From assembly GCA_938017515.1 (NCBI GenBank), contig CALIJJ010000209.1:10108-74107 (forward strand): DNA of 64,000 nucleotides, given 5' to 3'. Each line of letters starts with the position of its first letter. The stretch's first letter is position 1. The notes under the pieces are model-generated. The model ran no database searches, had not been told where the DNA came from, and was given only the letters and a program-made list of their open reading frames with translations. Both the position numbers and the translations under genes were made by a program. Of this stretch, positions 36,643-39,711 are shown one piece after another. The stretch is from an uncultured Pseudanabaenaceae cyanobacterium. GTDB lineage: Bacteria > Cyanobacteriota > Cyanobacteriia > PCC-9006 > JAAUQQ01.

Positions 36643-39600
36643 TTAAAGAATCGCTTGCCAAGCTGCATCAAATGGAGTGAGCACTGTGCCCTGTCCCGGC
36701 AGAGCATTAGAGCTGGTGCGAACGGCTCCATTCATTGTCCAGGCTTCGCTGTTGCTACCGTCCGCACTGCGGAAGGCAATCAGCGGCGTGGTGCTGCCTA
36801 GGGCCTCCAGGCTTCCTGTTCCGATAATATCGAGACCTGTGGTCTTAGACAGAGGATTCTGGCCATCGGTCACTGCTACGCGGTCACCAGTCGTATTAGC
36901 CCCGTTCATGAACTGGATGCTCAAAGCACCTGCAGCATCGCTAAAGAGCAGGTCATAGGAGCCGTTGTTATCGAAGTCGCCTGTGGCTTCCAGCGTGAGA
37001 GACGAAATATCGCCCACGGTTAGCTCAACGGCATTGGGAGAGCCAAGCTGAGCGGGATCGGAGTTGGTATACCACACCGAAATTTTCTTGGTCTCGCCGT
37101 TATACCAGAGGATATCGGAGAGAGAGTCGCCATTGAAATCGCCAGTACCCTTGATGGTCCAGTTTTTGTCCGTGACGCTCTTGAGGGCGACGGCACTGCC
37201 AACGGAGGCTGTGGTGCCCTGGGCACTGCCGCCCAACCACAGAACGTTTTGCCCAGTGGCGGTATTACGCCAAACAATATCCGCTGAATTCTTGCCGTCG
37301 AAGTTTCCGACCCCTTGGATGGCCCATCTGGCGTCTTGAATAAACGGACCAAAGCTGGCAACGGTGGGTGTTGTTGGATTCGATAGGTCGGTGAGAACCA
37401 GGCGATTTTCGCCGGTTGTCGTGTTGCGGAAGACGATGTCGCTGGAGCGATCGCCATTGAAATCATCGGGAACGGGAGGTACCGCATCACCGACGTCCAG
37501 CTGAAAGGTCTGCGTTGCTTCGACCAATCCCGGTCCGCCTATCTGGGGGTCATCCAGATTAACGGTGACGTTATAAGTGGTGTTGGGCGTAATGCTGACA
37601 CCCGGTTTAATCTGCAATGATGGTGTTGCACTGGTCGGATTAGCAACCTCAAACAGGTCGGCATTGATGCCCGTCAGCGAGTACTCGAGTGTACCGCCAC
37701 CATCAGGGTCAGTCACAGCAATATCAGCCACCTTGATACCTTGGGCAGTATTCGCACTGCCTGAAATCTGGCTCACGCCATTTTCTAGAACAAACGTGGG
37801 GGCATCATTGACGTTGGTGAAGGTCACATTGGAAACGGCTGCTGGTGTCGTGGCCGCCACTACACCATCGCTCACAGACACGTTGTAGGTGGGTGCAACT
37901 TCGCCACCGTCATGGACAAACTGAATCGCGTTATCCTTCACCTGCTGCTGGGTGAAGCTTGTGATTGCGCTGCCTGCTGCACTCACAAGCTCAAATTGTC
38001 CCCCCGTCACTGTTGAGACCGTGAACGTTAGGTTTTCGTCTCCCGTATTGGAGTCCACCGCAGCAAGGAAATCCGAGGTGAACGGAATCGTGGCTCCCTC
38101 TTCAATGGTCAGCGTGTTGGTTGTGATTTGAGGAGCTTCGCTAGCATCCACAATCGAGAATTGGAACTTCTCAATCCGGTTGAAGTCCGCAAAGGCGGCA
38201 TTGCCGCTTTGTCCACCGTCGTCAGTACCATCCGTCAAAACCAATGTGATTTCGACGGCACCTGTTGCCCCTTGAACTGGCGTAATCTCGATGCTCTGAG
38301 AGCCCGGGTTACCAACAACTGCAACTGTGGCGATATTTTGGTCGCTACTAGCGGCAGTGAAGCTGAGGGCACTCGCCACGGCATTGTCTAGCTGGTCGAT
38401 ATCGCCCACCGCAACGGGGATGCTAACGGCAGCTGAGTTTTGAATGACAGTCTGGTCTGTGAACTCCGTCGCAAAGAACAGCGGGTTATCAATGGTGATC
38501 TGGACGGTTGGATTGTCAGATTCATTGGCTCTCTGAGTCAGAAAGTCAGTGATAACCTGGGGCACTTCTCCCGAGAGCTGGTTTTTGGTGAGGCGGAAGG
38601 TCGTGATATTGGACAGTTGTGCCAGTTCGGCTGGAATACTGCCCGTGAGGTCATTGTCACTGAGGCCCAAAACAGTCAGCGCGGTTAGATTCCCGAGGGA
38701 AGCAGGAATCTCACCGGTGAGCGTATTGAACGCAAGCTGCAAAAGACCCAGGTTGACGAGATTCCCGAGGGAAGCAGGAATCTCACCCGTGAGTTGGTTA
38801 CTCGTTAAGTCGAGCCTGGATAAGCCGATTAACTGTCCTAGTTCCGTCGGAATGGGGCCAGAGAGCTGGTTGTTGTTCAGCTGCAATCGCTCTAGGTTGG
38901 CGAGATTGCCCAAAGAAGTGGGAATCCCGCCCGTCAATTGGTTGTCACCGAGAATGATCTCCGTAACACGGTCGTTTGCGACGGTGATGCCAAACCAGCC
39001 TTCCACCACGCTCGATTCCGGTGGGGTGTTGCTGCTGAAATCGTGATCTACCCAGCCTGTGTTGTTGGTCCAGTTTGCACCGCCCGTATTCTGGTACAGG
39101 TCTCTGAGTGCATCATAATCAGCCTGGTTGAGGGGAGCAAAGACGCCAGCATAGGTGGCTTGGACTGCAGGCGCGATCGCCAGCTCAACCACTGGGTTGC
39201 CCACAGTGACTTCCAGATTCCAGTCACCGCCTTGCTCCGCATTACCCGTGCGGGTCTTGGAGGCTGCGATCGCTGCCCCTGTCAACGCATGCAGCTTTTC
39301 TAGGAACTCACTCCCTGCGTCACCTGCGGCCACATTACAACCGTAGAGCAGCAGCGAAGGTGCATCATCTTGCGAGAACCAGCGACTCAACTGTGCGCTC
39401 TGCGCATCCAATGTGCTGAGGCTCAGTTCTCCATTGCCCAAATACAAGCAGCCCGGAGCACCGTGGGAAATGATGTGGATTTGAGAGAGGTGCCGGTGCT
39501 GCTGTAGAAGCGCTGTAATTTGGGCGACCCCATCCCGTGTCTGATCTAATACCGCAATGTGGTGCTCTGCGGCGATGCCCGCCACCAGCGATTCAGACGC

Positions 39601-39711
39601 ACTAATTTTAGAATCTAAAATAACAAGAACATCGGAAGAGTCCTTGCTGGTATTGGCTTTAATACTGTCAAGCTGCTGCATAGGGTTAGACAGGGATAGC
39701 TTGTGAGACAT
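36643..39711 (-). CDS. Large multidomain surface protein: DUF4347-like N-domain, plant-type LRRs, cadherin-like domains, FG-GAP/VCBS repeats
   Basis: The N-terminal ~190 aa resembles DUF4347 (recalled). Five 24-aa LRRs of plant-specific type follow (LxxLxLxxNxLxGxIPxxLGxLxxL). Then comes a Thr/Val-rich beta-sandwich (cadherin/Big-like) region. The C-terminus has FG-GAP-like repeats ([56 protein letters not shown]). Confidence 0.8.
   Translation of the reverse strand: [1022 protein letters not shown]

Follow-up and report, generated by a model that had tools for sequence, protein, structure and literature searches.

A DUF4347-headed protein with leucine-rich repeats, cadherin-like domains and an FG-GAP propeller, encoded near hetR in a filamentous cyanobacterium

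In Pseudomonas aeruginosa, DUF4347 is contained in PA0256 (PMC8262886), or Tce1, a 310-aa type VI secretion cargo that sits inside the Hcp3 ring. His186 and Cys240 of Tce1 have been proposed as a catalytic dyad resembling that of the TcdB cysteine protease domain (CPD), and in Tce2, a similar putative protease, the C115S substitution abolishes toxicity (PMC13323088, 2026). In the MARTX toxins and in TcdA and TcdB the peptidase C80 domain has an internal position; once activated by eukaryotic inositol hexakisphosphate, it cleaves at its N-terminal side (PMC2900308). The V. cholerae CPD cleaves after the Leu at its junction (PMC2780291). A literature search on DUF4347 gave four papers, and no cyanobacterial member was the subject of any of them. 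Here we examine a DUF4347-headed protein of 1022 amino acids (aa) encoded at positions 36643-39711 of a 64,000-nucleotide stretch of cyanobacterial DNA (contig CALIJJ010000209.1, assembly GCA_938017515.1), which is called the window throughout.

The protein is 23% identical to Tce1 and differs from that small cargo in being a 1022-aa multidomain product. Its likeness to the C80 toxins lies in a clan-CD fold with a His/Cys dyad and in the placement of such a domain in a very large, apparently exported protein; MARTX toxins are substrates of type I secretion of the repeats-in-toxin (RTX) type. Unlike the C80 domains, DUF4347 is N-terminal here, effector and pore-forming regions are absent from the protein, and the C80 matches of its relatives are below cutoff. 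Like the LapA and MpIBP adhesins and the Rhizobium Rap proteins, it has no signal peptide, is acidic and poor in Cys, and combines cadherin/Ig-like domains in tandem with a ligand-binding region (PMC7493085, PMC9298526, PMC10990149). It differs from these proteins in lacking RTX nonapeptides, scans of the window found no neighbouring genes of LapG/LapD type or for type I secretion, and the LapA retention module is unrelated to its N-terminal domain. The explanation we favour, with modest confidence, is that it is a modular, Ca2+-dependent, exported, adhesin-like binding protein with an N-terminal processing domain, made by a filamentous, hetR-carrying cyanobacterium of the Leptolyngbyaceae type.

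The DUF4347 head

The gene, its N-terminal domain and the two candidate catalytic residues are placed as follows.

36643..39711, minus strand: complete coding sequence with ATG start, 1022 aa plus stop (open reading frame call)
39136..39627, minus strand: DUF4347 alpha/beta domain, aa 29-192 (Pfam PF14252)
39463..39465, minus strand: codon of His83, candidate catalytic His, in a His-Gly directly after the strand at aa 75-81
39337..39339, minus strand: codon of Cys125, candidate catalytic Cys, in a Tyr-Gly-Cys directly after the strand at aa 119-123

An initial annotation, made from the sequence, had described a 1022-aa open reading frame (ORF) at this position with a DUF4347-like N-terminal domain, and both were borne out. 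PF14252 matches aa 29-190 with an E value of 2e-53 (180.9 bits against a cutoff of 24.6), covering model positions 1-163 of 164. In the AlphaFold model the domain has a predicted local distance difference test (pLDDT) score of 89.7, and fold comparison assigns it the caspase-hemoglobinase alpha/beta fold of clan CD, like that of caspase, CHAT and C80 domains. His83 and Cys125 lie at the C-terminal ends of adjacent central strands in this model, and the motif HIISHGAPG resembles the His part of the clan-CD His/Cys dyad.

Conservation points to the same residues. In an alignment of 83 DUF4347 domains, Cys125 is present in all (83/83), His83 in 79/83 and the adjoining Gly84 in 82/83. Profile alignment places His83 on the THG motif and Cys125 on the LYGC motif of P. 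aeruginosa Tce1 (PDB 9qpe), the sole match of the DUF4347 profile among PDB sequences (E 0.077). After DUF4347 itself, the second commonest Pfam family among the 83 relatives is Peptidase_C80, matched weakly and below cutoff in 22/83 (best E 0.0078). Other below-cutoff clan-CD matches were to C13 (two relatives) and CHAT (one relative).

A conserved Y-x-G-V-[L/F] junction motif closes the domain at aa 187-191. By analogy with the V. cholerae CPD, this junction could be a cleavage site and is treated here as a candidate. Among orthologues the DUF4347 domain is 64-73% identical and the other domains 34-59%. DUF4347 is therefore the most conserved and slowest-evolving part of an otherwise fast-evolving protein. 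It looks like a self-cleaving clan-CD cysteine protease, a likeness that the initial annotation had passed over. Fold, conservation and analogy together suggest that it most likely performs thiol chemistry, either self-processing or cleavage in trans.

Domain order and the binding modules

From the N-terminus to the C-terminus, the protein consists of DUF4347, a cysteine-less N-terminal cap with six leucine-rich repeats (LRRs), three cadherin/Ig-like beta-sandwiches and a five-repeat FG-GAP/VCBS beta-propeller.

38968..39135, minus strand: LRR N-terminal cap without cysteines, aa 193-248, similar to the plant LRRNT_2 cap
38536..38967, minus strand: six 24-residue LRRs of the plant-specific type, aa 249-392 (consensus, Pfam, model)
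38134..38535, minus strand: beta-sandwich 1, aa 393-526 (AlphaFold strands, pLDDT 60-88)
37816..38133, minus strand: beta-sandwich 2, a Cadherin_3 domain, aa 527-632 (Pfam, model, protocadherin matches)
37477..37815, minus strand: beta-sandwich 3, a cadherin-like repeat with NVNDAP and DPD motifs, aa 633-745 (model, Foldseek)
36646..37476, minus strand: FG-GAP/VCBS-type beta-propeller, aa 746-1022 (sequence repeats, model, profile matches)

The AlphaFold model of aa 186-1022 has a mean pLDDT of 83.4. The product is acidic, with 110 Asp+Glu against 37 Lys+Arg, and its only two Cys residues are both within DUF4347. A hydropathy scan showed no hydrophobic N-terminal segment, in agreement with the earlier remark that no signal peptide is obvious, and no transmembrane-like segment anywhere in the product (maximum Kyte-Doolittle 19-residue mean 1.46). 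A Pfam scan of the whole protein found no kinase or other signalling domain and no NTPase or STAND module.

The plant-specific (PS) class of LRRs is defined by tandem repeats of 23-25 residues with the consensus LxxLxLxxNxL(t/s)GxIPxxLGxLxx (PMC2946307). The LRR block belongs to this class, with five full matches and one partial match. As the initial annotation had noted, five consecutive units match LxxLxLxxNxLxGxIPxxLGxLxxL in exact 24-residue register (aa 249-368); a sixth, terminal unit at aa 369-392 retains only LxxLxLxxNxLxGxVP. In the whole-protein scan LRR_1, LRR_8 and LRR_4 were above their cutoffs at about aa 248-390. The cap carries the motif LNxxDYxALxxLYxxTGGxNWxNNxGW...WxGI and is modelled as a helix (aa 196-208) plus a hairpin; cap and LRR solenoid together reach a pLDDT of about 98. 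The cap region scanned alone matched nothing in Pfam, and the same cysteine-less cap is present in bacterial homologues. Structural matches of the LRR region include the plant proteins SERK2, SOBIR1, FLS2 and MIK2, as well as Leptospira LIC11098 and Xanthomonas XopL.

Near-identical 72-bp DNA repeats had been reported in the LRR-coding region (at about 38690-38840), and variation in repeat number had been thought likely on that account. Neither claim held. Tandem Repeats Finder detected no tandem repeat in the gene, and the six 72-nt LRR-coding units are only 36-60% identical to one another at the DNA level. The sole repeat found by a seed-based search is a 54-nt pair (38668-38721 and 38740-38793), 72 nt apart and 81% identical. 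A database protein (P0001, NCBI/ENA) that is 99.4% identical to the product has the same length, whereas the orthologues of 39-49% identity differ among themselves in the number and regularity of LRRs and in cadherin copy number.

Two DUF4347 proteins from metagenome-assembled genomes (MAGs) of Okeania sp., P0018 and P0029, contain 21 and 15 PS-type LRR units in perfect 24-residue register. These units are near-identical in peptide sequence, which makes the two proteins far better candidates for repeat-number variation than the gene in the window.

The Ig/cadherin-like beta-sandwich regions proposed earlier were recovered by profile and by model. Cadherin_3 matches aa 527-617 with 60.4 bits against a cutoff of 25.5. 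The model places the three sandwiches at about aa 400-521, 528-630 and 639-740. Foldseek aligns them with tandem extracellular cadherin domains EC1-4 of protocadherin over about 367 columns (E 9e-12). For aa 620-745 the Pfam scores are weak and below cutoff (Cadherin-like 17.8 against 24.2 bits, Cadherin 14.6 against 28.8 bits). The first sandwich (aa 393-526) scanned alone has no Pfam match. The same module also follows the LRRs in DUF4347 proteins of Leptolyngbya, as phmmer matches to P0089, P0065, P0054, P0002 and P0003 show.

The C-terminal propeller consists of five sequence repeats of about 54 aa, and about 20 strands are modelled at aa 750-1022, which fits five blades; the last residues of the protein form the final blade strand. 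Canonical Ca2+ loops of the form D-x-[DN]-x-[DN]-x-x-x-D occur as DFNGDRSSD at aa 750, DFNGDSLSD at aa 858 and DFDNNGSYD at aa 912, and in repeats 2 and 5 the loop is degenerate. In the whole-protein Pfam scan FG-GAP (13.3 and 17.4 bits), FG-GAP_3 and W_rich_C were below cutoff at about aa 850-922. The C-terminal 283 aa scanned alone gave FG-GAP at 28.4 bits against a cutoff of 22.1 (E 1.4e-6). A search with this region returned 1968 homologues (best E 1e-69); all 120 homologues listed carry FG-GAP (PF01839) and nearly all carry FG-GAP_3 (PF13517). Compared with solved structures, the region profile matched CRTAC1 (E 1.5e-7) and integrin alpha-V (E about 1e-3). The closest structural match outside the LRRs is the beta-propeller lectin UmbA4 (PMC13274773), which has six repeats and is 14% identical; integrin alpha has seven, and the present protein has five with only three canonical Ca2+ loops. 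The FG-GAP assignment has support from the C-terminus taken alone but falls short in the whole-protein scan, and the likeness to integrin alpha does not extend to the number of repeats. Domain searches support the LRR assignment of the initial annotation and, with this caveat, its FG-GAP assignment.

Export and competing explanations

That the product is an exported, Ca2+-dependent binding protein is suggested by its domain content, its acidity, its few Cys residues and the associations of its family. Being acidic and Cys-poor and having no signal peptide, it shows this trait of type I secretion substrates. It would be exported by a Sec-independent route, with type I secretion as the best guess because some members of the DUF4347 family bear RTX repeats. 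Cadherin-like substrates of type I secretion exist, namely the Rap proteins (PMC9298526), and in one exoproteome a cyanobacterial FG-GAP protein is abundant (PMC5702739). Outside the cell, the cadherin-like domains might build a stalk stiffened by Ca2+. The LRRs, a small SERK-like arc, would offer a surface for binding a protein or peptide, and the propeller, whose likeness to the lectin UmbA4 favours a binding role, could depend on Ca2+ and perhaps bind glycans. Processing of the protein itself, or of a bound partner, would fall to the C80/CPD-like domain at the N-terminus, with candidate self-cleavage at the Y-x-G-V-[L/F] junction directly after DUF4347.

Several results weigh against this explanation. 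Neither the protein nor its orthologues contain RTX nonapeptides (GGxGxDxUx), and in the AlphaFold model the C-terminus is the last propeller strand, not a free secretion signal. Pfam and NCBIfam scans of the approximately 45 ORFs of the window found no gene for HlyD, TolC or a dedicated type I secretion ATP-binding cassette (ABC) protein. The sole exporter-type ABC protein, at 16760-18913, is a generic MsbA/HlyB-like protein that is below all cutoffs and lies about 20 kb away. A type I secretion system can be encoded away from its substrates. On the side of the head, the query reached none of the curated clan-CD models in Pfam, only DUF4347, and the C80 matches of its relatives are all far under the cutoff. 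Tce1 itself had no detectable activity in assays (PMC13323088). Proteolysis has been demonstrated for no cyanobacterial DUF4347 domain, and in the literature Cys dependence is on record for Tce2 alone, which is not a DUF4347 protein. The middle of the AlphaFold model is of moderate confidence only (pLDDT 48-88).

The lack of detectable Tce1 activity would also suit a plain adhesin whose DUF4347 is catalytically dead or irrelevant and acts as a fast-folding N-terminal plug, a retention domain or a structural cap. The domain would then hold a protein exported C-terminus first at the cell surface, much as the retention module of LapA does. DUF4347 is near the N-terminus in the surveyed cyanobacterial ORFs, its alpha/beta fold needs no Ca2+ while the other modules are Ca2+-dependent, and retention modules have been described for adhesins of type I secretion (PMC10990149). 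If no chemistry took place at this site, however, it would be hard to account for a Cys that is invariant and a His-Gly that is nearly so in 83 diverged relatives, and the internal or two- to three-copy DUF4347 of some giant proteins is unlike a pure N-terminal plug. We regard a plain adhesin as rather unlikely. Less likely still is that the protein is secreted to act in trans as a protease or toxin, its head targeted by the LRR, cadherin and propeller modules to a competitor, a grazer, a host or the cell's own sheath. The clan-CD fold, the Cys-dependent toxicity of Tce2 to yeast (PMC13323088), the rapid divergence of the binding modules and the gingipains, which are among the fold-comparison matches and join a clan-CD protease to adhesin domains, would all suit a trans-acting enzyme. 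Against it, the genes conserved beside this one include none of immunity-like or partner type except one for a small membrane protein, and C80, which the relatives weakly resemble, is self-cleaving and not a general protease (PMC2900308). A more speculative idea, which we hold to be doubtful, joins retention with self-cleavage: DUF4347 would be the head of Sec-independent giant cyanobacterial exoproteins that needs no Ca2+ for its folding in the cytoplasm and halts an export running C-terminus first, leaving the Ca2+-dependent binding modules displayed on the filament surface until C80-like cleavage at Y-x-G-V-[L/F] frees them. If true, one domain would replace two Lap-type proteins, the retention module and LapG, across thousands of cluster representatives.

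An intracellular role is very improbable. A caspase-like sensor-effector for cell death or immunity, likened to the CHAT/orthocaspase repeat proteins of multicellular cyanobacteria, would sense through its LRRs and propeller and thereby activate the N-terminal protease. Cadherin-like domains, Ca2+ loops in the FG-GAP modules, a strongly acidic composition and a scarcity of Cys suggest a place outside the cell, family members carry RTX and other extracellular-type modules, and the Pfam scan found no NTPase or STAND module. Clearly disfavoured, to the point of being hardly credible, is recent horizontal transfer of a receptor ectodomain from a plant, with the product acting as a receptor. The PS consensus, the LRRNT_2-like cap and the plant receptor kinases as best structural matches speak for such an origin. 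In contrast, identity to the aligned query is 46-55% for the LRR segments sampled from bacteria and metagenomes and 29-40% for the plant ectodomains, and 7148 of the 8000 scored candidates in the whole-protein search reached E <= 0.001, thousands of them non-plant proteins; the named sources among the 120 matches listed are almost all bacteria. The G+C content of the ORF (0.52-0.55) is that of the rest of the window, and positional orthologues exist in other cyanobacterial genomes. Compared with the plant ectodomains (SERK, SOBIR1, BIR, FLS2, MIK2) and PGIP, the protein lacks Cys-pair caps, a transmembrane helix and a kinase, and it does not have the signal peptide, Cys-pair caps and transmembrane segment that mark plant LRR receptor kinases and receptor-like proteins.

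A type III effector was also considered and rejected. The NCBIfam matches to Xanthomonas XopL, XopAC and XopAE and Leptospira LIC_11051 are partial (about 48 bits against cutoffs of 450-1000), the Xop matches cover the LRRs only and are about 10-fold below cutoff, and the architecture is not that of a type III effector. A type VI cargo like Tce1 was judged unlikely because the product has 1022 aa and Tce1, which fits inside the Hcp3 ring, has 310. Cyanobacteria are not known to have type VI secretion systems.

Of the two general functions suggested at the outset, adhesin or receptor, adhesin is the most reasonable, and the receptor half falls away for a protein with no transmembrane segment, kinase or signalling domain. 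The accompanying view that the eukaryote-like domain mix is notable was overstated: the closest relatives of the product are bacterial proteins, LRRs of the plant type are plentiful in bacteria, the G+C content is native, and DUF4347 is routinely accompanied in cyanobacteria by cadherin-like and FG-GAP modules. Its likeness to plant surface proteins has little significance, since bacteria use all of its modules as standard parts of extracellular proteins. What deserves following up is the C80/clan-CD-like DUF4347 domain, which heads many large cyanobacterial ORFs of exoprotein type. An invariant Cys in a clan-CD-like fold, top conservation and a junction motif make a part in the maturation, anchoring or release of giant exoproteins testable.

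Family, orthologues and genomic neighbourhood

The protein is a member of a large, uncharacterised family of DUF4347-headed proteins. The DUF4347 profile reached 17,114 cluster representatives at E <= 0.001, and 70 complete cyanobacterial ORFs carrying the domain were surveyed. In these the domain is near the N-terminus, with a median offset of 26 aa. At least three RTX nonapeptides together with RTX-type C-termini were found in 24/70, and another group ends in an FGFEDL...GGD.DYND motif. Within the set, plant-type LRRs are confined to the orthologue group of the present protein; some DUF4347 proteins of Leptolyngbya and Okeania have far more LRRs. Partner domains in DUF4347 relatives are of extracellular types (RTX, LVIVD, PPC, MAM, C-type lectin and cadherin), and cadherin-like, FG-GAP and RTX modules are routine partners in cyanobacteria. 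Some very large proteins (among P0361-P0501) carry DUF4347 two or three times or internally, for example at residues 2908-3076 of 4793 aa, so N-terminal placement is not universal.

Full-length orthologues, 39-49% identical, occur in cyanobacterial MAGs (Synechococcales, Leptolyngbyaceae and one unclassified). They lie in a syntenic block of an hmpF-like gene, valS, hetR, in some cases yjbQ, a gene for a small protein ending in a transmembrane helix, the DUF4347 gene and a pyridoxal phosphate (PLP)-dependent decarboxylase gene. The neighbours are 55-92% identical across genomes and the DUF4347 protein 39-49%, which makes its gene the fastest-evolving of the block. Such rapid divergence is typical of exposed binding proteins. 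In the window the neighbours are hetR (NCBIfam equivalog, 517.7 against 489 bits), a short HmpF-like ORF, valS, a YjbQ-family gene, the PLP decarboxylase gene and a gene for a B12 radical S-adenosylmethionine (SAM) enzyme, and the source is therefore a filamentous cyanobacterium. hetR itself (41477-42403, minus strand) is 92% identical across genomes and lies about 1.8 kb upstream of the DUF4347 gene on the same strand. The linkage of the two was found at every orthologous locus where it could be checked among L001-L007. This position near hetR in several Leptolyngbyaceae-type genomes offers an entry point to a possible role in filament adhesion or mat formation.

In the genome of Synechococcales cyanobacterium CRU_2_2 (L007, about 8671-11692), tblastn covers residues 1-995 of the protein, and the ORF from the start codon is only 441 aa long. 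This suggests a frameshift in that orthologue, either in a pseudogene or through an assembly error in a MAG of about 4x coverage.

The gene directly upstream (40042-40824, minus strand) has no family match, and its product ends in a transmembrane-like hydrophobic helix, FAWLALGGIALAALSLLWLA. The product is about 55% identical in L003, L006 and L007, where the gene also lies between hetR and the DUF4347 gene. Two signal-like stretches occur in the interval between the two genes.

39772..39801, minus strand: promoter-like -35/-10 pair, TTTATA, 18-nt spacer, TATAAT, about 60 nt upstream of the ATG
39925..39952, minus strand: terminator-like hairpin with T-run, 3' of the upstream gene; a consensus match only

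The promoter-like pair is likewise a consensus match only, and such matches in this region are no commoner than in shuffled sequence. Because the hairpin and T-run follow the preceding gene, the DUF4347 gene is probably its own transcription unit.

Further along the block, a 157-aa ORF (46041-46514, plus strand) matches the first 145 of 553 positions of the model for HmpF, a protein of pilus motility taxis. Its product is 61-69% identical beside valS in the orthologous loci; because of this conservation it is a real short gene resembling the HmpF N-terminus and not a fragment. Three dispersed genes for Uma2-family putative endonucleases (7762-8427, plus strand; 15987-16631, minus strand; 47100-47654, minus strand) were also found, and Uma2 genes flank the orthologous loci as well.

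About 5 kb from the DUF4347 gene, a 287-aa protein (30499-31362, minus strand) is made almost entirely of RTX nonapeptides, with nine HemolysinCabind stretches (E 8e-75). From its sequence it is likely a type I secretion substrate. Its homologue on the near-identical contig L001 has no Pfam entry in the precomputed annotation. At 3308-5969 (plus strand), an EgtB-like ORF with FGE-sulfatase and DinB_2 domains adjoins an EgtD-like histidine-specific methyltransferase (Methyltransf_33), and the two look like an ergothioneine biosynthesis pair. The lowest G+C content of the window, 0.497 against 0.52-0.58, is at 28001-30000; next come several small ORFs that match no family and lie between the glutathione S-transferase genes and the radical-SAM gene.

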